Part shown: piece by piece, positions 2,308 to 39,481 of the stretch
Layout of the letters: every line of letters starts with the position of its first letter
How positions within the stretch are numbered: the first letter of the stretch is position 1
Source: an uncultured Chloroflexia bacterium
GTDB lineage: Bacteria > Chloroflexota > Limnocylindria > Limnocylindrales > CSP1-4
Direction: 5' to 3'
DNA: 64,000 bases
Assembly (NCBI GenBank): GCA_963778805.1
Contig: CAVZVT010000005.1
Location: 293,838-357,837 of the forward strand
Notes under the pieces: generated by a model
Database searches by the model: none
What the model was told of the DNA's origin: nothing
What the model saw: the letters and a program-made list of their open reading frames with translations, nothing else
Translations under genes and position numbers: made by a program

Positions 2308-2319
2308 GAACGGGTGTTC
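2308..2319. promoter_or_regulatory. putative LexA/SOS box (Cheo-type GAAC-N4-GTTC) immediately upstream of uvrA
   Basis: Sequence tacGAACgggtGTTCtat lies 13 nt before the ATG at 2332; the ORF-track start (GTG 2314) sits inside the box, so 2332 is the more likely start. Confidence 0.5.
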
Positions 2320-2331
2320 TATTCGGTCGCG

Positions 2332-5300
2332 ATGCCGTACAATCGGGACGTGCCCCAGGATCAGCTCGTCGTGCGCGGCGCGCGCGAACACAACCTCAAG
2401 AACGTCGATGTCGCGTTCCCGCGCGACCGGCTCGTGGTCATCACGGGCCTCTCGGGTTCGGGCAAGAGCAGCCTCGCCTTCGACACCATCTACGCCGAAG
2501 GCCAGCGTCGCTACGTCGAGAGCCTGAGCGCCTACGCCCGCCAGTTCCTCGGGCAGATGGAAAAGCCGGATGTCGACCAGATCGACGGACTGTCGCCGGC
2601 GATCTCCATCGACCAGAAGGGCGCCTCGCGGAACCCGCGGTCCACCGTCGGGACCGTCACCGAGATCTACGACCACCTGCGGCTGCTGTTCGCCCGGATC
2701 GGGATCCCGCACTGTCCCAACGGCCACGCGATCGAGCGGCAGAGCGTCCAGCAGATCGTGGACCAGGTCCTCGCCCTGCCGGAAGGGACCCGGCTGCTCG
2801 TGCTCGGCCCGCTCATCAAGGACCGCAAGACCGAGGGCGACCGCGTCTTCGATTCCGCGAGGCGGCAGGGCTTCGTCCGTGTCCGCGTCGACGGGGAGAT
2901 GGTCGACATCGCCGATGCGCCCAAGCTCGACAAGTACAAGCGCCATTCGATCGAGGTCGTGGTCGACCGCTACATCGTTCGCCATGCCGAGGCGCCTGAG
3001 GATTCGAAGCGGGCACCGGACGGCCGACCGATCGACCCCGAGACCGGCGAACCGATCCCGGATCCCGATGCCGGCCGGCTCGCGGACTCCGTGGAGACCG
3101 CCCTCCGACTCGGCGAGGGCGTGGTCCTCATCGCCCCCGCGCCGCGCGATGACGAGGCGCCGGCGTTCGAGGAGCAGCAATACAGCGAAAAGTACAGCTG
3201 CCCGTACGACGGGTTCACCGTCGAGGAACTCGAGCCGCGGACGTTCTCCTTCAACTCGCCGCACGGGGCATGCCCGTCGTGCGCCGGTCTCGGGACCCGG
3301 CTGGAGATCGACGAGGATCTCGTGGTCCCGGATCGATCGAAGAGCCTCCAGACCGGGGCGCTGGTGCCGTGGTCACGCCTCGCCACGGACGCATCGTGGC
3401 GGCTGAAGATCATCGAGGCGATCTGTAACGCCCACGGCTGGGATTTCAAGGCGCCGTTCCGCGACCTCCCCGAGGAGGCCGTCGAGTACATGCTCCGGGC
3501 CGCCAAGAGCGAGAAGGTGGTCGTCCGCTATCGCCACGAGCGAGGCGAGAACACGTACAACGCGACGTTCGAGGGCATCATCACCAACCTCGAGCGGCGG
3601 TACAAGGAAACGGACTCCGAGTTCATCAAGAACGAGCTCGAGCGGTACATGGTCAGCCGCCCATGCCCCACCTGCGGTGGCAAGCGGCTCCGCCCGGAGA
3701 TCCTGGCCGTCACGATCGGCGACCAGAACGTCTGGGACGTGTCGACCCTCTCGATCAAGGAGGCGCTTCGCTGGGCGAGCGGGCTCGGCGAGACGCTCAC
3801 CGAGCGGGAACGGACGATCGCGGTCCAGCTCCTCAAGGAGATCGTGGCGCGGCTCGGGTTCCTGGTGGATGTCGGGCTCGACTATCTGACGATGGATCGG
3901 ACGAGCGTGACGTTGTCCGGCGGGGAGGCCCAGCGGATCCGTCTCGCGACGCAGATCGGGACGACGCTGATGGGCGTCCTGTACATCCTCGACGAGCCCT
4001 CGATCGGTCTGCACCAGCGCGACAACGCGAAGCTCATCGCGACGCTCACGCGCCTGCGGGACCTGGGGAACACGGTCCTCGTCGTCGAGCACGATGAGGA
4101 GACCATCCGGACGGCGGACTGGGTCGTCGATATCGGGCCGGGGGCCGGCGAGCACGGTGGCGAGATCATCGCGAACGGGCCACTCGACGCGGTCCTCGCC
4201 GAGCCGCGTTCGATCACCGGGGCATTCCTGCGAGGGGAGCGGGCCGTGCCGATCCCGGCCAGGCGCCGGCATGGCAACGGCAAGGCACTCGTCGTCCGGG
4301 GGGCCCGCGAGCACAACCTCCAGAACGTGGACCTGCGGGTGCCGCTCGGGACGTTCGTCGCGGTGACGGGCGTGTCGGGGAGCGGCAAGAGCACGCTCGT
4401 GACCGAGGTGCTCTATCGAGCGCTGGCGCGAGAGCTCAACGGATCGCGTGAACCCGTGGGCGCGCACGATTCGCTCGACGGGGCGCAGCACATCGACAAG
4501 ATCATCGAGATCGACCAGAGCCCGATCGGCCGAACGCCGCGCTCCAACCCGGCGACCTACGTGGGGCTGTTCACCCCGATCCGCGAGTTGTTCGCGGGTG
4601 TCCCGGAGTCGCGCGTCCGTGGCTACACGCCGGGTCGGTTCAGCTTCAACGTCAAGGGCGGCCGCTGCGAGCACTGCAAGGGCGACGGGATCCTCAAGAT
4701 CGAGATGCAGTTCCTGCCGGACGTCTACGTCCCGTGCGAGGTCTGCAAGGGCAAGCGCTACAACCGCGAGGCGCTCGAGATCCACTACAAGGGCAAGTCG
4801 ATCGCGGACGTGCTCGAGCTGACCATCGCCGAGGCCCTCGAGTTCTTCGCGGCGGTGCCCAACGTGCGCGCCAAGCTCCAGACGCTCAACGACGTGGGGC
4901 TGGGGTACGTCCACCTCGGCCAGCCGGCGACGACCTTGTCCGGCGGCGAGGCCCAGCGGGTCAAGCTCTCGACCGAGCTGTCGCGGCGCGCGACGGGACG
5001 GACGCTGTACGTGCTCGACGAGCCCACGACCGGGCTCCACTTCGCCGACGTCGAGAAGCTGCTCGAAGTGCTCCACCGGCTCGTCGATGGCGGGAATACC
5101 GTCCTGGTCATCGAGCACAACCTCGATGTCATCAAGACGGCCGACTGGATCGTGGACCTCGGACCGGAAGGTGGCGACCGCGGTGGCCGGATCATCGCGG
5201 AGGGCACGCCGGAGACGGTGGCGGCCACCAAGGGGTCGGCCACGGCGGACTATCTCGACCGCGTCTTGCGCGGCGAGCCGCTCGTGCCGTTGTCCGACGT

Positions 5301-5412
5301 GACGTTCGCCGACGAGGCGGGCCGCGGCGTGCACACGAACGGCCACCAAAAGCCGGTCGCCCGGATCACGCCATCTCGCAAACGAGCCGCCGCCACGACC
5401 AAGGCCGGCTGA
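2332..5412 (+). CDS. uvrA: excinuclease ABC subunit A
   Basis: Two ABC ATPase modules with Walker [11 protein letters not shown] / [10 protein letters not shown], signature LSGGEAQR twice, and zinc-finger cysteines (CPYDG…[12 protein letters not shown]…CEVCKG); ~1030 aa. Confidence 0.95.
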
Positions 5413-5479
5413 CGGGGGGTCGGGCCCGGGCCGGCCCGCGGCCGCGGCCGAGCCCGGGTCCTCGGCCCGGCCCGCCGCA

Positions 5480-5822
5480 CCGCCCGTTCGAGTCTCTGGC
5501 GCCCAACCGCCCGTTCGAGTCACCCCACGACCGAACCGACCGCCGATCGCTGACCCGCCGTCGGCCCCGGCCGAGCCCGCCCGAGCCCGCCCCGACCGCC
5601 CGTTCGGTCACCCCACGACTCGAACCGACGCGAGCCGGAACGTCCTCGATCGGCACCCCGGTCCGGCCTGGACCGCCGCCAGCCCGCCCAGCCGCCCGTT
5701 CGGTCACCCCACGACCGAACCGACCAGTCCCGGACGGCCCCGATCTGCCCGCACTCGCCCCGGCCGGACACGCCGCCAAGCCCCGCCGCCCGTTCGGTCA
5801 GCCTCGGCACGACCGAACCGAC
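5480..5822. repeat. array of 4.5 copies of a ~34-bp palindromic repeat (CCGCCCGTTCGGTCACCCCACGACCGAACCGAC; stem GTTCGGTC / GACCGAAC), period 89-96 bp
   Basis: Copies at 5480-5494 (partial), 5507-5540, 5596-5629, 5692-5724 and 5786-5822; copies are imperfect and the 55-62-bp inter-repeat segments are GC-rich and partly similar to each other. Confidence 0.7.
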
Positions 5823-5834
5823 GCGAACCGAGCC

Positions 5835-6618
5835 TCATGACTGGCGGCACCTCACAGCACGACGATGCCGGATCCACCCGGGTGGCGCCCTGCGCCAAGG
5901 TCGCGCAGGCATCACGCGAGCTTGGATCGGAAAGACATCGCTCGAGCAACGACGCGGCGGATCGGAGGGCGTCTGCGATTTCGACGTGTGTCTGAGACAA
6001 GCAGCAGGACGTGCTCCGCTCCCTCCGTCGCGGGCCTTGAGCGTGATCCGTCGGACTTGCGCCTGAAGGTCGATGAGTCTCGTCTCGGCCTCCACCGGAA
6101 GCCCGTCCATGATCGGCCTCGCTATCGCACCAGCCCGCCGATGCAGGCGTCCCATGCTCGTTGATCGCCGGGGATCCCGTAGTGGGACCTCCATCCGGAA
6201 GGTCAGCTCCGGCATGCGAGCCGCTGCCGGAGTCGATCCAGCAGGGCGATCTGCGCGGCGTCCCGGATCGGGTCCGGACCGGGATATGCTCGGACCCGAA
6301 CATCGAGGCCGACCGCTGAACCGAGCCTCGCGAGCTGGTCGACGCTCGCCGTCGCGAAGGCGGCCCGCTCGATCCGACCTGCCTGCGATCGGCGACAGCC
6401 CGGCCGTCGCCGCCAACGTGGACCTGGGAGCGACCAAGGATCATTCGAGCACCGCGGATCTCGTCCGCCGACTCGTAGCAGATCCGCCCGCGCGAGTCGC
6501 CGACCACGGTCGATCGGTCGCTCTCGGGTCGCCCATCCGTGCAGTGTCGCTCGACCTCACGTATCTGCGGCCAAACCGCGGCTTCGCGCCCAGCGGGACC
6601 CGAGGCCAGGTCGAGCAA
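5835..6618 (-). pseudogene. decayed or frameshifted ORF of unknown function on the minus strand
   Basis: Protein-like reading (high GC3) switches between three minus-strand frames (6618→~6400, ~6400→6230, 6437→5835); no recognisable domain; local GC is lower than surrounding genes. Confidence 0.3.
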
Positions 6619-6704
6619 GTGCGGCCAGGTCGGGTAAGGCGGCTCGGCGACATCGATCCCGACCGTACCCGCGGGCGGCCTCGGCCAGGGGCTAGCATAG
6701 GAAT

Positions 6705-7523
6705 GTGCCGGATATCGACTTCGCCTTTCTCGCGGACGCCGCCGAGACGATCCCGGGGCAGAAGTTCCATGTGCTTGGCGGCGGGATCGCGCGGATCGGC
6801 GGGAAGCGGTTCCCGCTGCGACATCCGCATCTCGCGCTGGTGATCGGCCTCCAGGTCACGGCCCCCGAGACCGAGCGGGAACACGAGGTCCGCTTCGTCC
6901 TGCTCGACCCTGATGGCGCCGAAGTGGCCGGTGCCACGGGGAGCCTCGTCGCGCGGAGCCAGCGCGATGGTCGCGACGCGACGCTGACCTTCTCGATCGA
7001 CCTGTGGAACCTGACCTTCCCGTCGCCAGGCGACTACTCGTTCCGGATCCTCGTCAACGGGTCGGAGCGCAAGCGACTCCCGCTCCTGCTGCTCGCCCCG
7101 CCTGACGATGCGACGGCGCAGGGGGGCAAGTCGGTCACGCGCCCAGCCGATGACTGAGATCACGGGACGATCGACGTCGGCGCGTCGGGGTCGTCGACAT
7201 CGGCATCTCCGGCCGGGCGCACGACCGCGCGTCACGAGCGACCCGTCATCGATGCGCTCGGGCTCGAGGCAGCTCGGCACGGCGACCGACTGCTCGCGGA
7301 AGCGCACGCGATCGGTGCCACCCGGTGGGCGACCTACCTCGAACCGCTGCCGGATCGCCTTCGCGACGACGAGCCCGCCGCTCTTCGCCGAACGGCGATG
7401 CGGGCACGATCCGCCTACGGCCCGAAGGACTCCGTCCGGGATGCGCTGCCGGAGTCGCTCACGGAACCGTTCCTGGACTCGATCGACCGACTGCTGCGGG
7501 AGCTCAATCGAACCAGGGCATGA
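6705..7523 (+). CDS. hypothetical protein; a 150-aa ORF (6705-7157) ends at TGA 7155-7157 and the same frame continues coding-like to 7523
   Basis: A TAGCAT -10-like hexamer lies 15 nt upstream; GC3 stays high in frame after the TGA (…VIDALGLEAARHGDRLLAEAHAIGATRWATYLEPLPDRL…) with no alternative start codon downstream. Confidence 0.4.
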
Positions 7524-7663
7524 GGGCCGGTCGCTAGGCCTTGAAGGCCAGTCGCGGGCCAGAGCGACCCCGAAGGCCGGTCGCTGGCCACAGGGCGACC
7601 CCGAAGGCCGGTCGCTGGCCACAGGGCGACCCCAGAAAGCCACTCGCTGGCCAGCCCGAATCC
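7524..7663. repeat. 31-bp tandem repeat block (4 units, 2 perfect: CCGAAGGCCGGTCGCTGGCCACAGGGCGACC) between convergent gene ends; each unit holds a short inverted repeat
   Basis: Perfect units at 7570-7600 and 7601-7631, degenerate units at 7539-7569 and 7632-7663, and a partial unit at 7524-7538. Confidence 0.7.
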
Positions 7664-7664
7664 T

Positions 7665-9173
7665 CTAGGACGTCGGCGGGGTGGGGCTCGGTGGCGTGAA
7701 CGTCGATGCCTGGGCCATCAGATCGGCGACCTGGGTGCTCGCGGCGTAGGCCGCCTCACCGGCGGTGCCACTGGTCTGGATGGTCATCGTCCCGCCGGCG
7801 CCGTAGTCGATGATGTACGAGTAGAGCGTCGTCCCGACGGGCGTGCCGCTGTCGGCCGTGGTCGATGTCGCCTCGACGAGCGTCGCCTGCAGGCCTGACA
7901 CGGTCGCCTCGGCCGACTGGATCACGTTCCAGTTCGCGGGGTCCGTCGCCGCTGCGACGGCGTCGTCATACGAGGCCACATCCGGCTTCACGGTGATCGC
8001 CGCGTCCGGTGCGCTGCCGTCGGACGGCACGCTGATGGGGTTCGGATCGAAGTACTGGCAGGCGGCGGCGGGCGGCTCGGAGAGCGTGTGCCAGGCCGCC
8101 GGGTAGGCGATGGACGCCAACGGCACGCCACTCGGGCTCTCGATCGCGCAGCTGGACTGCGGCGGAACCGAAGGAAGCGGCGGCAGGGTCGGGGCGGGTG
8201 TCGGCTTGGGCGTGGGTGACGGTGTCGGCTTGGATGTGGGTGCCGGCGTGTCCGAGGGCTTCGGCGTCTCCGACGGCTTCGCGGATTCCCCGGCCGAGGG
8301 CTTCGGCGTCGCGGTCGGCTTGGGCGTGGGTGACGGGGTCGGCTTGGGCGTCGGCGTGGCGCTCGGGATCGGCGGCACGGAAGCCTCGGCCTCCGCCTCG
8401 TCTGCGGCTCGCGGCTTCGTCATCGCCACGATCACCTCGGAGTTCCGGTCACGCAGGACCACGGCGAGCCCACGGCGCTCGATGAAGGCCGCTCCCTGGA
8501 GCGCATCGAGGAACTCGGACTCCTGGGTCATCACATCGTCGGCGCACGTCTGTCGCGTGGTCGCGAGCCGGCTGATCTTCACGATCGTGCCGTTGGTCCC
8601 GTAGACACCGTCGTAGGTGTTGCAGCCGCTCGAGCCGCCGACGTTGGTGATGCCGAAGACGGCGGTCAGCTCGGTGCCGCTGATGGGGATGGTCTGTGAT
8701 CCGGGCGAGGTCGCGAAGGAGTCGACGTTCCATGCACCCAGGAGGGGGTTCGCGGGGGCCGCGTCGAAGACCAGGAGCACCTGTCCGCCGGCTCCGAAGA
8801 TCGTGAGCGTATCGGCTCGGACCCCGAAGAACCGGCTGTCGTGCAGGACGGAGAGGTAGGTCGATTCGAAGGTCATCTCGGCGTCGGCGCAGGCCTTCTG
8901 CGTGGCATGGACCTGGGAGATCAGCAGCGTCCGGCCGCTCGCCCGGGCGATCGCGCCGTAGTCGTTGCAGCCGGCGAACCCGTCGACGCGGTTGCCCGTG
9001 AACTTGGCGTCCGCGTACAGCGCCTCGGGGACGATCTCAAGCGTCCCGCCATTGGCGTACGAACGGAGTACCCAGTTCGTGCCCTCGATCTCGCCGCCGG
9101 ATCCGCCACCGGGCGAACAGGCGACGACGCCGAGGACGAGGCCGATCAGGACCGCGAGTCGCCGGATACGCAT
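7665..9173 (-). CDS. secreted lipoprotein with two tandem META (HslJ-like/DUF306) domains, a Pro/Thr-rich linker and a C-terminal domain
   Basis: Lipobox LVLGVVAC; the motif GCNxY/GxY…T(M/Q)xAC appears twice; the linker [19 protein letters not shown] is encoded by repetitive DNA at 8190-8400. Confidence 0.7.
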
Positions 9174-9174
9174 G

Positions 9175-9438
9175 TCAGGCGGACTTGCTGCCGACGTACA
9201 GGGCGAACAATCGAAGGGCGTAACCGAAGCCGGCGACCACGAACGAGAGGAAGATCGGCACGCCGATCGCGCTCGCGGAGATGGCCAACGCTTCGAACAG
9301 GTTGAACGCCGGGCGCTGGGCCAGATCGATCCACCAGATGACGCCCGCGATCAGCGAGTAGATCACGAAGATCCATCCGACGATCACGAAGAACGTCCCG
9401 ATGGACGCCAGTCGGCGAACATCGTTCGTGAGATCCAT
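9175..9438 (-). CDS. small membrane protein (88 aa, 2-3 TM helices)
   Basis: ATG preceded by an AGGAGG RBS (9446-9451, minus strand); the stop lies 1 nt before the lipoprotein start, suggesting an operon. Confidence 0.45.
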
Positions 9439-11179
9439 GTGGTTCCTCCTACGGGTCTGCACCCAGATCGAATCCTGGTGTCGTCGCTGACCCCGCCTCG
9501 GCGGTGCCCCGACATCGTACGTGATGGGCTAGCGTGCGCGCCCGAGCCCGAGCCGAGCCCGAGCCCGAGCTCCGCCGTCGAGAACGCCTCGAGCAGGAAC
9601 GGGGACGGGGTCGCCGGGTCGTAGAGGATCGTCAGCGATCGGCGCGCCCGGGTCCACGCGACGTAGGCCAGTCGGCGCTCCTCTTCGTAGGCTCGCGCGG
9701 GGTCTGCGGCGCCCTCCACGGCCTTGGCGCTCGGGAACCTCGCCGATTCCATCCCGAGGATGATCACGTGGTCGAATTCGAGGCCCTTGGTCGCGTGGGC
9801 GGTCGACAGGGTCAGCGGCGCATCGTCACGTCGAAGCTCCGCGAGTCGCGCTCGAGCCGCCACAACGGCCGCGGTGAACGTGGCGAGGTCGGGGTAGGGA
9901 GGTGCCCACGCAAGCAGGGCCGCCGCGGCAGCGGCTTCTGCCGGATCCGTGGCGTCGCCGCGCAAGCGCCCGAGCGTGACGAGCAACGGCTCCCCGGCGG
10001 CGGCGAGCGCGGCCAGCTCGGCGGCCCGTGCCAGCAGGCCATCCAGATGCGGATCCTCCAGCGGCAGCTCGATCCTGGCGGCACGAAAGGGCAGCCCCTC
10101 GGCCAACGCCACGACCACGGCCGGGATCAGTTCACGGTTCGTCCTGGCCAGGACGGCCCGGGTGGAGTCGTCGGTCGGCCAGGTCCGCATCGCGCGCTCG
10201 AGCCGGACCGGATCGTCGGCCGCATCCGGCGCCAGGGTGAGCGAGCCGGGCGCCTCATCGCGCGCCCGGATCCGCTTCGCGAAGCGTTCCCCGTTGTGCT
10301 CGACCAGTCGGACCGCGCGTTCGACGACCGCCCGCGGACATCGGTAGTTGACCTCCAGGTCGATCCGGCGGAGACCCGGCAATGACGCATCGAGACGCAG
10401 GACCCGTCGGACGTCGGCCAGCCGCCAGCCATAGATCGACTGGTCGTCGTCACCGACCAGCAGGATCCGGTTCGCCGGTGCCGCGAGCAGCAGCGCCAAC
10501 CGAAGTTGCGCGCGATCGACGTCCTGGACTTCGTCCACCAGCAGATGCGCGCACCGATCGCGCCATCGAGCGAGCAGATCCGGCCGGTCCTGGAGCAACC
10601 GCGATCGCGCGAAGGATGAGGTCATCGAAGTCGACGCCACCCGCCTCCTCGACGGCCGCCTGATAGGCCACGAACATCCGCGCGATCGGACCCGGCCTCC
10701 GGATCGGCGGCGACCTGTGCCGCGGTCACACCCAGCTCGACCTTCAGGCGGGAGATCGCCCCGTCGAACTCGAGGCGGGCGGCGTCATCGGCGTCGGGCC
10801 GGATCCGGCGAAGGATGGCGTCCCGGTCCACGAGATCCACGGCGTCGCCCGCGTCGCGCAGGATCTCGAGCCCGAGCGCGTGGAAGGTCCGGACCCGCGC
10901 GGCGCCGGCTTCGATGCCGAGCGGCGCAAGAGCCGCGTCCAGCCGTTCCGCGAGCTCCACGGCCGCCCGTCGATTGAACGTGATCGCCGCGATCGAGTCG
11001 GCCGCCACGCCGCCCGCGCCGCCCGCCACCAGCCACGCGATCCGGGCGACGAGGGTCGTGGTCTTGCCGCTCCCCGCCGGCGCCACGACCAGCACCGGCC
11101 CCGGCTCAGCAGTCGCCGCCGCACGCTGATCCGGCGCAAGGCGCGCGAGCCGCTCGACGACCGACGGGTGAAGGTCCAC
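9384..11179 (-). CDS. UvrD/Rep-family (SF1) DNA helicase, frameshifted copy
   Basis: Walker A VVAPAGSGKTTTL, UvrD motifs (DFDDL, LLVDEVQD, VGDDDQSIYGWR, YRCPRAV, TAHATKGLEFDHVII, YVAWTRAR) spread over at least 3 frames (frameshifts near 10620-10680); the 3' end overlaps the small membrane protein gene so the true stop is uncertain; it contains a (GAGCCC)n tract at 9541-9570. Confidence 0.6.
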
Positions 11180-11203
11180 CGACGCAGCATGCCGACCGCC
11201 ACG

Positions 11204-11270
11204 TACCTGCGGATCACCGCCTACCTGCCGATCACCAAATACCTGCCGATCACCCCGACCGCACTAGACT
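11204..11270. promoter_or_regulatory. three exact-period 18-bp direct repeats (TACCTGC[C/G]GATCACC) followed by a TAGACT -10-like hexamer, in the divergent helicase/uvrC promoter region
   Basis: Repeats at 11204-11218, 11222-11236 and 11240-11254; TAGACT at 11265-11270, 8 nt before the uvrC ATG (near-leaderless). Confidence 0.5.
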
Positions 11271-11278
11271 GGAGATGC

Positions 11279-13129
11279 ATGACCCCGGACCTCGAAGCCA
11301 CGCTCAAACGACTCCCGGATCGGCCGGGCGTCTACCTCATGAAGGACGAGCGCGGCGACGTCGTCTATGTCGGCAAGGCGCAGAGCCTGCGCAGCCGCGT
11401 CCGGTCGTACTGGCAGAAGGCGACGCCCGCCGGCGAGATCCACCGGATCCGCAGCGTCATCGATCGCGTGGCCGAAGTCGAGTACACGATCACCGATTCC
11501 GTCTCCGAGGCACTCCTCCTCGAGGCCAACCTCGTCAAGCGCTACAAGCCGCGGTTCAACGTCCGACTCAAGGACGACAAGAGCTACCCGTACATCAAGA
11601 TCACGCTCGGCGACGACTTCCCCCGCGTCGAACGGACCCGCAAGCTCCCGACCGACGGGAGCCGCTACTTCGGTCCGTACGCGTCGGCGGTGAGCGTCGA
11701 CGAATCGATGAACCTGGTCCGTCGCCTGTTCCCGTTCCGGACCTGCACCATCGATATCAAGGACGGCGAGCGCGCCCTCCAGCGGCCCTGTCTCCTGTAT
11801 CACATCAAGAAGTGCCAGGGCCCCTGCATCGAGGCGATCTCCAAGGACGCGTATCGCGAGGACATCGCGCAGGTGGAGCTCTTCCTCGAGGGTCGGCAGG
11901 AGACCCTGGTCAAGGCCCTCCACCGCGAGATGGCGATCGCCGCCGAACGGGAGGAGTACGAGCGAGCCGCCGGTCTCCGCGACAAGATCCGCGCCATCGA
12001 GCGGACCATGGAGAGCCAGAAGATGGCCGCGTTCGCGAAGCGCGAGCTCGACATGATCGGTCTGGCGCGGCAGGACAACCAGGCGGCCGTCCAGCTCTTC
12101 GCGATCCGCGACGGGAAGATGGTCGGCCGCGACGTGTTCCTCCTCGATGCCGCGCGCGACGCCTCCGACGAGGAGGTCCTCGCGAGCTTCCTCGAGCAGT
12201 ACTACGCCCGGGCCACGTCGATCCCGCGCGAGGTCTATCTCCCGCGCGTCGCCGAGGACGTCGCGGACATCGAGGCATTCCTCGCGGATCGTCGAGGCGG
12301 CCCGGTCCATCTCAAGACGGCGCAACGCGGCGAGAAGCGCGGATTGCTGGAGTTGGCGACCCGCAACGCCACCGAAACGCTCGCGCGCGAGCAGGCCCGC
12401 TGGCTCGTCGACCAGGGCAAGACGCTCGCGGCGCTCGAGGAGCTCGCCGCCGCCCTCGGCCTGCCCGGCCCGCCGTCCCGCATCGAGTGCTACGACATCA
12501 GCAACTTCCAGGGCAGCGAATCGGTCGGGAGCATGGTCGTCTTCGAGGACGGCAAGCCGAGGAGCGGGGAGTACCGGCGGTTCCGCATCAAGACCGTCGA
12601 GGGCCCCAACGACTTCGCGAGTCACCAGGAGGTGCTCCGCCGTCGGTTCCGCACGACCAAGCCCGGACAGGAGGGGAGCGAGGAGGAGCGCCGCTGGGCG
12701 ATGCCGGACCTCGTGATCATCGATGGTGGCAAGGGCCAGGTCAGCGCCGCCAAGGAGGTCCTCGACGAACTCGGTCTTCACGACCTCCCGATGGCCGGTC
12801 TCGCCAAGGAACGCGAGGAGTTGTTCCTGCCCGGTCAGCTGGAGCCGGTCGTCCTGCCCGCCACGTCACCGGCGCTCTACCTCGTCCAGCGCCTCCGCGA
12901 CGAGGCGCATCGGTTCGCCATCACGTACCACCGCGACCTGCGCGCCAAGCGCCAGGTCCGCTCGCAGTTCGACGACCTCCCGGGCGTCGGCCCGAAGCGC
13001 AAGCGCGAGCTGCTCAAGGTCTTCGGCTCGATCAAGCGCGTCCGTGACGCGCCCGTCGAACAGATCGCCGCGGTCCCCGGCATCGGCCGAGCCCTGGCCG
13101 AACGCATCAAGGCCACCCTCGAGGCATAG
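11279..13129 (+). CDS. uvrC: excinuclease ABC subunit C
   Basis: GIY-YIG N-terminus (PGVYLMKDERGDVVYVGKA), UvrBC-interaction region, and a C-terminal RNase H-like domain with HhH. Confidence 0.92.
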   Translation: MTPDLEATLKRLPDRPGVYLMKDERGDVVYVGKAQSLRSRVRSYWQKATPAGEIHRIRSVIDRVAEVEYTITDSVSEALLLEANLVKRYKPRFNVRLKDDKSYPYIKITLGDDFPRVERTRKLPTDGSRYFGPYASAVSVDESMNLVRRLFPFRTCTIDIKDGERALQRPCLLYHIKKCQGPCIEAISKDAYREDIAQVELFLEGRQETLVKALHREMAIAAEREEYERAAGLRDKIRAIERTMESQKMAAFAKRELDMIGLARQDNQAAVQLFAIRDGKMVGRDVFLLDAARDASDEEVLASFLEQYYARATSIPREVYLPRVAEDVADIEAFLADRRGGPVHLKTAQRGEKRGLLELATRNATETLAREQARWLVDQGKTLAALEELAAALGLPGPPSRIECYDISNFQGSESVGSMVVFEDGKPRSGEYRRFRIKTVEGPNDFASHQEVLRRRFRTTKPGQEGSEEERRWAMPDLVIIDGGKGQVSAAKEVLDELGLHDLPMAGLAKEREELFLPGQLEPVVLPATSPALYLVQRLRDEAHRFAITYHRDLRAKRQVRSQFDDLPGVGPKRKRELLKVFGSIKRVRDAPVEQIAAVPGIGRALAERIKATLEA

Positions 13130-14536: not shown

Positions 14537-15677
14537 CATCATCGGGAAGCGGAAGTGGTTCTATCTCGTCTCGCTGATCATCACGATCCCCGGCCTCTTC
14601 TTCATCCTGCTGACGCCGTTCACCCAGTACGGCCTCCAGTTCACGATCGACTACACGGGTGGCACGAAGTGGGAGGTCCGCTTCGAGGACCCCAACGTGA
14701 CGCCCGAGCAGGTCGAGGCGGTCTTCGCCGCGCAGGGCCTGGCGGCGTCCGCGGTATCCACCGGCTCTGGGTTCATCGAGATCAAGACCGTCCCGATCGG
14801 ACTCGTCGAGCAGGAGGCCACGCCGACCCCGGTCGCGACGCTGGCACCTGACGCATCGGCGGGTGCGTCGGCGGGGCGCGTCTCGGCTTCGGCTGGGGCG
14901 TCGGCAGCCCCGTCGGCGGCACCGAGCGCGAGTCCCAGCGCCGAACCAAGCGGCTCACCCTCGCCCTCCGGATCACCGGCCCCGGCGGCCGGGACCGGCG
15001 AGCTGCCGACGACCGGCAAGCTCGGCGAGGTCCGTGTCGCCCTCGAGGCGGAACTCGGCAAGATCGTGGCGCAGAACAGCCTCACGACCATCGGCCCGGT
15101 GGTCAGCGCCGATCTCATCGGTCAGGCACTCATCCTGATCCTGGTCGGGTCCATCGGGATCCTGATGTGGATCACGTACCGGTTCCGCGACGTGAAGATG
15201 GGCGTGACGGCGCTCGTGTCCCTGTTCCATGACGTCATCGTCGTCGTCGGTGTCTTCGCGATCCTCGGGACGTTCTTCGGGGTGGAGATCGACGCGCTGT
15301 TCGTGACCGCGATGCTCACCGTCATCGGTTTCAGCGTGCACGACACCATCGTGGTCTTCGACCGCGTCCGGGAGAACAAGGCACGACATGCCGGCGAGCC
15401 GTTCCCCGACATCGTCAACCATTCCATCCTGCAGACGTTCGGTCGCTCGATCACCACGAGCCTGACCGTCGTGCTGACGCTGCTCGCGCTGCTCCTGTTC
15501 GGTGGCTCGGCGATCAGCGAGTTCATCCTGACGCTGCTCATCGGCATCATCTCGGGGACGTACTCGTCGATCTTCGTCGCCAGCCTGCTGCTCGTGGACT
15601 GGCAGATGCGCGAGGACCGACGCCGTGGCCGCGTGGCCGCCACGCGTGCGCCCCGGGCCCGCCGGTCGGCTTCCTGA
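14529..15677 (+). CDS. secF: protein translocase subunit SecF (with an Ala/Ser/Pro-rich insert)
   Basis: GTG start overlapping the secD stop; SecF 6-TM core (…ILGTFFGVEIDALFVTAMLTVIGFSVHDTIVVFDRVREN…). Confidence 0.85.
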   Translation: MFDIIGKRKWFYLVSLIITIPGLFFILLTPFTQYGLQFTIDYTGGTKWEVRFEDPNVTPEQVEAVFAAQGLAASAVSTGSGFIEIKTVPIGLVEQEATPTPVATLAPDASAGASAGRVSASAGASAAPSAAPSASPSAEPSGSPSPSGSPAPAAGTGELPTTGKLGEVRVALEAELGKIVAQNSLTTIGPVVSADLIGQALILILVGSIGILMWITYRFRDVKMGVTALVSLFHDVIVVVGVFAILGTFFGVEIDALFVTAMLTVIGFSVHDTIVVFDRVRENKARHAGEPFPDIVNHSILQTFGRSITTSLTVVLTLLALLLFGGSAISEFILTLLIGIISGTYSSIFVASLLLVDWQMREDRRRGRVAATRAPRARRSAS

Positions 15678-38418: not shown

Positions 38419-39481
38419 GTGGATCTGGTCGTCCTCGCGCTCGCGTTCGTCGTGATCCTCATCGGCGCGGAACTGTTCACCAACAGCATCGAGTGGTTCG
38501 GCCGCAAGCTCGAGCTCGCGGAGGGGGTGGTCGGGTCCGTCCTGGCCGCCGTCGGCACGGCGTTGCCCGAGACCATGATCCCGCTCATCGCGATCCTGTT
38601 CGGGACGAGCGCCGCGGCCGACGAGGTCGGGGTCGGGGCCATCCTGGGGGCGCCGTTCATGCTGGCGACCCTCGCGATGTTCGTCACGGGGATCGCGGTC
38701 CTGCACTCCGCCCGCCGACGTCCGACGGGTGACGTGATGCTCGTCGACACGCACGTGCTGGCCCACGACATGCGCTACTTCGCGATCGCCTACGCCATCG
38801 CGATCGGTGCGGCGTTCCTCCCGCTGGAACCCGTCTGGCTGAAGTGGATCGTGGCGCTCGTCCTCCTCGGGATCTACGCGTGGTACGTGAAGGGCCACTT
38901 CGAGGCCGACCCGGACGTCGATGCCAGCGATCTCTCGCCGTTGCGCTTCCACCGGTTCGATCGGGGAGCGCACCGGGCCGATCCGGTCGTGCCGCGGCTG
39001 CGGATCGTCAACATCCAGGTGCTCGCCGCGCTGGCCCTGATCATCCTGGGTGCCGTCCTGTTCGTGGAGGCCGTCGACCACATCGCGAACGTCCTCGGGG
39101 TCGACGAGTTGCTGCTGGCCCTGGTCATCGCCCCGATCGCGACGGAGCTGCCCGAGAAGGCCAACTCGGTCGATCTGGGTCCGGGCGAAGAAGGACACGC
39201 TCGCCATGGGCAACATCACCGGGGCCATGGTCTTCCAGTCGACGATCCCGACGGTCGTGGCGCTGCTCTTCGCCTCGCACGCGTGGGTGGTGACCGAAGG
39301 GACCTACCTGGCCTTCGCGTCGGCCGGGATCGCCTTCCTCTCGTCGGCGGTGATCTTCATCCCGATGGCGAGGTCCGGTCGTCTGCGCGGCAAGGGGCTC
39401 CTCGTCGGTGGCCTCTTCTATCTCCTCTACGTCGCGCTCGTGATCGCCGTCATCACCGGGGCCTTCGGCGGGGCCGCGTAA
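38419..39481 (+). CDS. CaCA-family Na+/Ca2+ exchanger (YrbG-like); frameshift near 39170
   Basis: Two alpha-repeat regions (GTALPE… and ATELPEKANS…) in two frames. Confidence 0.7.

Follow-up and report, generated by a model that had tools for sequence, protein, structure and literature searches.

Gene content between uvrA and uvrC in an uncultured Chloroflexota genome: a conserved core, two probably acquired segments, and frameshifts that are likely to stem from assembly

Flexible genomic islets combine conserved flanking genes with a content that differs between related genomes, and gene-fragmenting insertions and deletions (indels) have been described as errors of long-read assemblies and metagenome-assembled genomes (MAGs) (PMC12007338, PMC9262707). 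Both are relevant to the interval studied here, namely positions 5413-11278 of a 64-kb stretch of DNA from an uncultured Chloroflexia bacterium (contig CAVZVT010000005.1; hereafter the window), which is bounded by uvrA and uvrC. The original prediction, made from the sequence of the window, had described this interval as an old insertion or accessory patch undergoing decay, or else as a locus of unrecognised regulatory RNA or DNA elements. All six features that it listed are present where it had placed them. However, the explanation that we consider probable is a different one, i.e., that the interval is a normal, lineage-variable uvrA-uvrC neighbourhood of a soil Chloroflexota genome with two acquired segments, and that its apparent decay is mostly or wholly single-base insertion noise of the assembly.

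By a scan of a genome collection for UvrC, the window belongs with uncultured Chloroflexota. In UvrC identity, its closest relatives are the loci L081 (91%; UvrA, 93%), which was located through its homologue of the small protein orf111 described below, and L003 (85%), from an MFD MAG; the value for L002 is 70%. In L003 and L081 the gene order is uvrA, a DUF6941 gene that begins 30-62 nt past uvrA, an open reading frame (ORF) of 111-118 codons, a PEMT-like gene, an intact helicase gene of ~540 codons on the minus strand, and uvrC, with an additional HAD hydrolase between uvrA and uvrC in L081. The loci L086 and L087 have the same order, and intact orthologues of DUF6941, orf111 and the helicase are found in it in all four. 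The filling differs in more distant relatives. That is, the uvrA-uvrC gap of L002 holds SRPBCC, thioredoxin-like and other genes along with the helicase, L014 also has different genes there, with no helicase adjoining uvrC, and in Ca. Limnocylindrus (L016) the orf111 homologue is the sole gene between uvrA and uvrC.

Nucleotide homology between the window and its two closest relatives is interrupted at breakpoints that are identical against L003 and against L081, and these delimit two stretches of window-specific DNA, namely ~5400-6688 (segment A) and ~7530-9560 (segment B). Neither has a counterpart at the site in L003 or L081. Segment A contains a C-rich array of hairpin repeats and a gene for an XRE-family regulator. 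Segment B contains a 31-nt tandem array and a cassette of two genes, for a small membrane protein and a META-domain lipoprotein, at the site of the relatives' PEMT-like gene. As in flexible genomic islets, the flanks (uvrA and uvrC) are conserved, the content differs between genus- or family-level relatives, and the two-gene cassette, being portable, occurs in other contexts. Unlike in such islets, no integrase, transposase or tRNA is seen among the interval ORFs or their Pfam hits, with no tRNA scan having been made, and no flanking pair of direct repeats was reported in the repeat listing. Gene order and homology thus describe a conserved core with a lineage-variable filling, not one old insertion. 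The idea of an accessory patch holds for segments A and B, which L081 and L003 lack, and fails for DUF6941, orf111 and the helicase, whose order and intact orthologues are conserved in L003, L081, L086 and L087.

From this comparison, a plausible sequence of events can be proposed. The conserved core of these Limnocylindria-type Chloroflexota consists of uvrA, DUF6941, orf111, the gene for a UvrD-like helicase in opposite orientation, behind which relatives carry the PEMT-like methyltransferase, and uvrC. Segment A, with the XRE gene and the hairpin array, would have been acquired and inserted just upstream of the -10 box of DUF6941. Segment B, with its cassette and 31-nt array, would likewise have been acquired, replacing the PEMT gene downstream of the helicase, and an 18-nt sequence would have been triplicated locally in the helicase/uvrC spacer. 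The direction in each segment, i.e., gain rather than loss, is the one that the relatives' gene content suggests. Finally, the frameshifts would be insertion errors of the assembly, of the same type as those that break essential genes across the window.

To map the interval, we relied on ORF lists, a frame plot of GC content at the third codon position (GC3), Pfam, and Tandem Repeats Finder (TRF). Its left anchor is uvrA (2314-5412, plus strand), an intact gene of 1032 codons by ORF and GC3 frame plot, with a product 88-93% identical to UvrA of L003 and L081; its right anchor is uvrC (11279-13129, plus strand), which is intact and encodes 616 residues. The original prediction had reported a lower GC content at 5830-6700, and this was not borne out: the value is 0.689, against a window mean of 0.695 (~69.5%), and what is lost, across 5835-6700, is only the periodicity of GC by codon position. 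The bulk GC of the added DNA is normal, at 0.689 and 0.688 against 0.695.

Frameshifts were sought by comparing the flanks with L003 and L002, and then by a frame-aware Viterbi segmentation of the whole window, with Pfam run on the resulting pieces. At least nine housekeeping genes outside the interval carry the same +1 single-base shifts. Homology to L003 and L002 places frame breaks in tatC (~20403), rapZ (~21297, at ACT[T]CGA) and yvcK (~22836). Profile matches are split in tpiA (~24154; TIM, at 51/54), gpmI (~25460; iPGM_N, at 132/142) and recG (~58882; DEAD, at 71/86). The second piece of fmt (~51840) begins at position 61 of Formyl_trans_N, and that of an LCP gene (~41721) holds the whole LytR_cpsA_psr domain; the break in a DAK2/YloV-like gene (~57406) was read from the translations, without a Pfam scan. 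The background is therefore nine frameshifts in 58 kb of housekeeping genes, or ~1 per 6 kb, and a cell could not dispense with all of these genes. Together with the two in the helicase gene, all 11 shifts are of the type that adds one extra base (p=0.001). With the XRE gene set aside, the interval shows no enrichment in frameshifts (P=0.19 for at least two events); thus, the helicase is most likely intact in the organism, and its two shifts are probably assembly noise. The surrounding 58 kb had been taken for almost entirely conserved housekeeping genes; such genes they are, but they do not form a clean background, and the notion of an interval undergoing decay becomes doubtful.

Assemblies of related genomes are affected in similar ways. 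The uvrA gene of L081 (6383-9391) lies in four pieces over three frames, and the gene for the small membrane protein in L082 (7720-7996) is split. Between L084 and L086, which are 95% identical, there are 106 gap openings in 8 kb, though the orf111 protein is identical; of their two helicase genes, that of L086 is intact and that of L084 is fragmented. L002 and L003 come from MFD MAGs, which were assembled from Nanopore reads only and received one round of Medaka polishing (PMC12313526). The lesions in the window resemble known long-read (Nanopore or PacBio) errors in that they are isolated 1-nt indels, often in short homopolymers (GG to GGG, T to TT), that break conserved genes, including essential ones, and in that most differences between sister assemblies of one population are 1-nt gaps. 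We infer that most, or all, of the frameshifts are assembly errors in which a single base was inserted. Since the same insertions are found in essential genes, a frameshift in this window does not by itself indicate gene decay, and pseudogene calls in this MAG and in its sister assemblies need read-level support.

Base-calling errors linked to methylation at GATC were considered as a source of these indels and rejected: the indel sites are no nearer to GATC than random positions are, and GATC occurs everywhere at 12 per kb. Its abundance was noted separately, with 765 occurrences in the window against ~3 per kb estimated from base composition, an excess of ~4-fold that is probably an effect of codon usage (ATC codons after codons ending in G). 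In two other places, 14854-14995 and 39174-39467, the codon-phase GC signal leaves its ORF for 140-290 nt and then returns; these excursions may reflect a linker of odd composition or a pair of indels that compensate each other.

The densest frameshifting occurs in segment A, where the original prediction had listed an unknown, multiply frameshifted ORF. The frameshifts are real features of the given sequence, but the gene is not unknown. On the minus strand of 5835-6618, blocks of a helix-turn-helix (HTH) protein alternate between frames, and homology searches with this translation lead to XRE-family regulators, with a weak match to Pfam HTH_3 (E=6e-4). The stitched translation retrieves 1219 homologues, most of them named XRE-family regulators of ~220 residues (best E=3.5e-65), and homologues are present in Limnocylindrales genomes; a tblastn search of the stitched protein against plasmids gave no match. 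The gene, delimited from the stitched translation and the homologue alignment, spans 5852-6536 (minus strand) and 223 codons. A frameshift-aware alignment to the intact homologue P0001 covers all 223 of these at 75% identity, with zero codon gaps. It needs 10 extra-base events and one missing-base event; a twelfth event, an extra G after the ATG, was read by eye, and the start is regained by dropping one G of the GGG run (ATG-GGG-CG to ATG-GCG). In total, the gene contains 12 one-base indels, i.e., 11 insertions and one deletion. It has no unavoidable stop, in that the lone apparent one is escaped by shifting one frame change a few codons earlier. Its start and stop are kept, and no gap is as large as a codon. 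Once frame-corrected, the gene is thus a full-length, colinear counterpart of XRE-family HTH regulators, which have ~220 residues and an N-terminal Pfam HTH_31 or HTH_3 domain; unlike theirs, its frame as given is interrupted 12 times.

Three genes of the conserved core lie between the anchors. What had been read as one unknown ORF with an in-frame TGA (6705-7523) is in fact two genes, and the TGA (7155-7157) is the stop of the upstream one. A profile search with the translation of this region identifies the latter as DUF6941 (6705-7157, plus strand; 150 residues, intact). The match to Pfam PF22091 has E=3.7e-23 and 82.7 bits, against a cut-off of 27, and covers profile positions 2-122 of 125; identity to the L003 and L081 proteins is 86-93%. 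The downstream gene, orf111 (7150-7523, plus strand), encodes a small conserved helical protein without a Pfam domain that is 67-80% identical to its counterparts in L003, L081 and 2046 database proteins. An AlphaFold model predicts a helical bundle (pLDDT, the predicted local distance difference test score, of 81). Searches of the PDB by sequence and by fold with DUF6941 and orf111 returned no significant match.

The start of orf111 can be read in two ways. Its conserved body (7209-7523) is in the frame of DUF6941, and no in-frame ATG, GTG or TTG precedes 7398. In L081 the gene starts at the ATG within GATGACTGA, which overlaps the DUF6941 stop; the same string is found in the window at 7149-7157, in the +1 frame. 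Judging from these alignments, the start would be either ATG 7150, with a net shift of -1 or +2, or ATC 7170, which aligns with Met1 of the homologue P0121 and from which the body aligns without any shift. The family itself was noted as an observation apart. It comprises more than 2000 proteins of 111-123 residues, has no Pfam model, and in several Chloroflexota is encoded immediately behind uvrA, whether or not DUF6941 is present (window 7150-7523; L003 7506-7841; L081 10001-10357; L016 2636-2926).

In all relatives, a -10-like box, TAGCAT or TAGACT, is found 7-9 nt before the starts of DUF6941 and uvrC. In the window, TAGACT lies 9 nt ahead of the uvrC ATG, and TAGCAT precedes the GTG start of DUF6941 by 7-9 nt. 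The sites are 6690-6704 and 11262-11278 in the window, 7041-7049 and 9990-10000 in L003, 9976-9990 in L002, 1232-1247 in L014, and 9541-9552 and 13594-13604 in L081. Their proximity to the start codons suggests that these transcripts may be leaderless or have very short leaders.

The third core gene encodes a UvrD-like superfamily 1 (SF1) helicase of ~540 residues (9530-11179, minus strand; Pfam UvrD-helicase and UvrD_C). The original prediction of a frameshifted UvrD-like helicase with an iteron-like promoter is right as to the helicase, which spans ~9570-11179 on the minus strand over three frames, and as to an adjacent 18-nt repeat, and not as to iterons. The product is 78.5% identical to its L081 orthologue, which is intact, and the alignment contains exactly two frame changes, i.e., single-base insertions in G runs, one near 10693 in GCCGGGT and the other near 10596-10602 in GCGG. 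The intact L003 orthologue scores 226 bits against the PcrA equivalog model of NCBIfam (cut-off 911) and 216 bits against that of UvrD (cut-off 1144), so the protein is a short UvrD-like SF1 helicase and not an orthologue of either. The 18-nt direct repeat (TACCTGCCGATCACC+3; 11204-11254, 2.8 copies) occupies the spacer between the divergent helicase and uvrC genes. The sequence occurs once in L081 and L003 and is triplicated locally in the window; 1.66 Mb of related loci contain no other copy of the unit. Iterons, which are direct repeats of 17-22 nt beside an origin or the gene of a replication initiator, were rejected, as the repeats sit between the helicase and uvrC on the chromosome and triplicate this single-copy sequence.

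Several smaller observations concern the same gene. The ORF as given reaches 9384 and overlaps the start of the next gene; with one base restored, it would end at a TAG stop at 9530-9532. Within its window-specific C-terminal tail, positions 9540-9570 hold a run of GCCCGA hexamers with one 5-nt unit. A gene for a PEMT/ICMT-like membrane methyltransferase comes after that of the helicase in relatives, an odd pairing beside uvrC. The two genes overlap at stop and start in L003 (PEMT 7915-8299, helicase 8295-9929), and are called as one fused product in L081 (11422-13557) and L087 (7317-9203).

Segment B carries the META-domain lipoprotein and micro-membrane protein that the original prediction had proposed, and both genes are present. 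The lipoprotein gene (7665-9173, minus strand) is intact and encodes 502 residues, with a signal peptide and lipobox, two META domains (Pfam META, E=1.8e-35, in two stretches), a Pro/Thr-rich linker and a C-terminal domain. The membrane protein of 87 residues is encoded at 9175-9438 (minus strand), and its stop lies 1 nt ahead of the META start. The lipoprotein has 370 homologues, of which P0241 is 100% identical. In L082 and L083, the homologue is 75-78% identical and the gene for the 87-residue protein is always directly upstream, with an amino-acid identity of 85% in L083 and 84-94% in L082. Nucleotide homology to these two loci (78-80% identity) spans exactly 9454 to 7673, i.e., from the Shine-Dalgarno region to the META stop. 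The context there is unrelated, next to FUR/ZnuA or an ion-channel gene. The small membrane protein and the META lipoprotein thus form a conserved, portable two-gene cassette, with both genes intact here. As in HslJ/META lipoproteins, two META domains follow a lipoprotein signal peptide, and the JGI annotation names homologues 'heat shock protein HslJ'. Unlike E. coli HslJ, the protein has 502 residues, against 140 positions in the NCBIfam model, for which its score is 16.9 against a cut-off of 168; it also differs in its Pro/Thr-rich linker, its extra C-terminal domain and its constant 87-residue membrane partner.

The three strongest non-coding tandem arrays of the 64-kb window all fall within the interval. 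The palindromic repeat array of the original prediction is present at 5502-5822, with a period of ~96 nt (TRF score 274). It belongs to a non-coding C-rich tract (5413-5834) at the left edge of segment A, between the convergent uvrA and XRE genes, which is 79% GC, with 49% C and 30% G on the plus strand, and has no codon-phase GC signal. The core of the array, CCGCCCGTTCGGTCACCCCACGACCGAAC, occurs in four copies and one half copy, ~96 nt apart with C-rich filler between them. Its hairpin, GTTCGGTC-N7-GACCGAAC, has two exact and two near copies, against none expected in shuffled sequence, and folds into an 8-bp stem with a 7-nt loop (dG, the folding free energy, -12.4 kcal/mol; z=-3.5 against shuffles). 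The predicted 31-bp tandem-repeat block is likewise present at 7543-7653, at the left edge of segment B between the convergent orf111 and META genes; it consists of 3.6 copies of a 31-nt unit (GAAGGCCGGTCGCTGGCCACAGGGCGACCCC), for which neither 1.66 Mb of related loci nor viral contigs yielded a match. A weaker 19-nt direct repeat (6604-6643; 2.2 copies, TRF score 57) lies in the spacer between the divergent XRE and DUF6941 genes, and may be an operator.

Two further identities were considered for the hairpin array and rejected. A CRISPR array, in which unique spacers of even length part near-identical repeats, usually beside cas genes, is not consistent with inter-core stretches that are 58-66 nt long, C-rich, of low complexity and similar to one another (78% over the 96-nt period), and no cas-like Pfam hits occur in the interval. 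A proline-rich peptide, for which an ORF is open through the array, is at odds with spacings of 94-96 nt that are not all multiples of three, with units in different frames, and with the missing codon-phase GC.

The hairpin array is absent from L003 and L081, and searches of the window, of the 1.66 Mb of related loci and of viral contigs gave no further copies of its core. However, three JGI metagenome contigs (L088-L090) have the 30-nt core, at 100% identity, in their panB-panC spacer, where it is arranged in tandem with a 61-nt period; these contigs share nothing else with the window. In L088, inverted ends (GCCCGTTCGG / CCGGACGGGC) flank the hairpin of the unit. The recurrence at panB-panC points to a small family of repeats akin to repetitive extragenic palindromes (REPs), and the hairpin core, as a sequence, fits a small family of the type of REPs and bacterial interspersed mosaic elements (BIMEs). 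Like the REP/BIME elements of Enterobacteria and Pseudomonas, it is an imperfect extragenic palindrome of ~30 nt, found here at a gene end and, in L088, in an operon spacer, and it forms small clusters with variable linkers and, in L088, a unit with inverted ends. Unlike them, it is known from two contexts, with a single cluster in the 64 kb and none across the 1.66 Mb of related loci. Its copies in the window are all in direct orientation, and neither a GTAG-type 5' motif nor a RAYT gene was seen, with no RAYT search having been made over the window. A bolder proposal is that the 30-nt core CCGCCCGTTCGGTCACCCCACGACCGAACC and the ~58-nt inverted-end unit of L088 represent an undescribed family, akin to REP/BIME elements or to miniature inverted-repeat transposable elements (MITEs), of Limnocylindria-type Chloroflexota, which would spread intergenically, expand into tandem arrays with periods of 61 or ~96 nt, and mark or promote the entry of accessory genes into conserved neighbourhoods; we hold this to be rather unlikely.

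Two alternatives to assembly noise bear on segment A. In one, an eroding accessory patch holds genuine pseudogenes, namely the XRE gene and, perhaps, the helicase and orf111. Relative to intact orthologues, frames are indeed disrupted in the XRE gene (12 shifts) and the helicase gene (two), and orf111 lacks an in-frame canonical start. Segment A is dispensable, as it is missing in close relatives. The lesion spectrum of the XRE gene argues otherwise. Natural bacterial pseudogenes have an insertion-to-deletion ratio of ~0.76 and a broad, power-law range of indel sizes (PMC6054270), whereas 1-nt insertions make up 11 of the 12 XRE lesions, as in essential genes and opposite to the natural bias (P=7e-4). 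Moreover, these lesions are indels only, in a gene that is otherwise complete, and the helicase differs from its intact orthologue by just two 1-nt insertions at G runs. The spectrum is that of the noise and not of natural pseudogenes; thus, a locally badly polished stretch is favored as about twice as probable as natural decay for the XRE gene. The density of its indels would be explained if the segment varied between strains and its coverage were low or mixed. Overall, we regard real decay as unlikely. In the other alternative, segment A (5400-6688) is foreign to this chromosome, and the assembly joined it in from a small number of reads that belong to a different strain or organism. In keeping with such a chimera, the density of errors is confined to segment A, its GC3 is atypical, and the gap between uvrA and DUF6941 is just 30-62 nt in L003 and L081. 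However, the junctions are clean, with the uvrA stop and the DUF6941 -10 box both kept, the hairpin core is free of errors relative to the independent contigs L088-L090, and Limnocylindrales genomes have XRE homologues. We therefore view a chimera as improbable.

Certain results count against assembly noise in a normally variable neighbourhood, the explanation that we prefer. The XRE gene has 12 indels in 0.685 kb, ~100 times the window background (P=4e-21), so an artefact would have to have some particular local origin, for instance coverage that is low or mixed between strains; a uniform long-read error model leaves both this 100-fold excess and the strict insertion bias unexplained. After frame correction, its GC3 is 0.74, against ~0.9 in native genes and in the META gene, which fits either a foreign origin or drift after inactivation; this value and the confinement to segment A are compatible with an unpolished stretch and with decay alike. 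Segment B is as window-specific as segment A, yet without frameshifts. The helicase is mildly enriched in frameshifts (two in 1.65 kb, P=0.028), and its L002 orthologue (8507-8516 region) is also frame-split, at another site (residues ~127-139). The sequencing platform of the window's assembly is deduced from relatives alone. As for the repeats, whole arrays fold no better than shuffled sequence (z of -0.3 for the hairpin array and -1.2 for the 31-nt array), and consensus scans for sigma-70 promoters and intrinsic terminators found 0 promoter-like and 0 terminator-like sites.

The repeats and the gene neighbours suggest two other readings, which differ widely in probability. The arrays, which lie between convergent genes or at the edges of acquired DNA, would in our preferred explanation be slippage or duplication products of small hairpin elements; any role that they have would probably be as transcript-end hairpins, and the C-rich tract might serve in Rho loading. 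Alternatively, the hairpin, 31-nt and 18-nt arrays could be working cis elements and not neutral slippage products, i.e., REP/BIME-like hairpins at transcript ends, a C-rich Rho-loading tract after uvrA, and operators for the XRE protein or for a regulator of uvrC and the helicase. The conservation of the 30-nt core between unrelated loci, the stability of the single hairpin, the strand composition of the C-rich tract, and the location of the arrays at gene ends or in a divergent promoter spacer are in favor of such functions. They are opposed by the folding and consensus-scan results just given, by the failure of Rfam to yield any family at E<=1 over 5000-11600, by the restriction of the 31-nt and 18-nt units to this locus within the related sequence searched, and by the absence of all three arrays at the same genes in close relatives. 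Functional arrays are thus possible but doubtful. Of the unrecognised regulatory elements in the original prediction, what stands is the recurrence of the hairpin core at an unrelated locus, a modest basis. Lastly, a UvrD-like helicase together with HTH and DUF genes might denote a defence island, with a Gabija-like or other anti-phage system. The helicase does match the PADLOC models of GajB (E=4.7e-61), but it matches PcrA, UvrD and Rep models equally well, and it is syntenic with uvrA and uvrC across relatives. Neither GajA, the OLD-family ATPase/TOPRIM protein whose gene adjoins that of GajB in Gabija, nor another partner is found; DUF6941, orf111, the META lipoprotein and the small membrane protein are without PADLOC hits, and a PHROGs search gave no hits. 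The absence of GajA effectively refutes the Gabija reading, and we consider any such system extremely improbable.

Taken together, these data indicate that, between uvrA and uvrC, these Chloroflexota retain the genes for a UvrD-like helicase and for two small proteins that are uncharacterised, DUF6941 and the orf111 family, and that the gap tolerates gene exchange. They leave current understanding unchanged. Their main value is the caution that they impose on the reading of frameshifts, and the small hairpin repeat common to unrelated intergenic sites is one mildly new item.

Two observations were made on the left flank of the window. An ORF of ~103 codons directly before uvrA (1965-2276) is common to the window and L081. 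At 1-1869, upstream of uvrA, sequence of the AI-2E transporter family, matched in two stretches of a single ORF, takes the place that uvrB occupies in L081; thus, the left flank has also been rearranged between close relatives.

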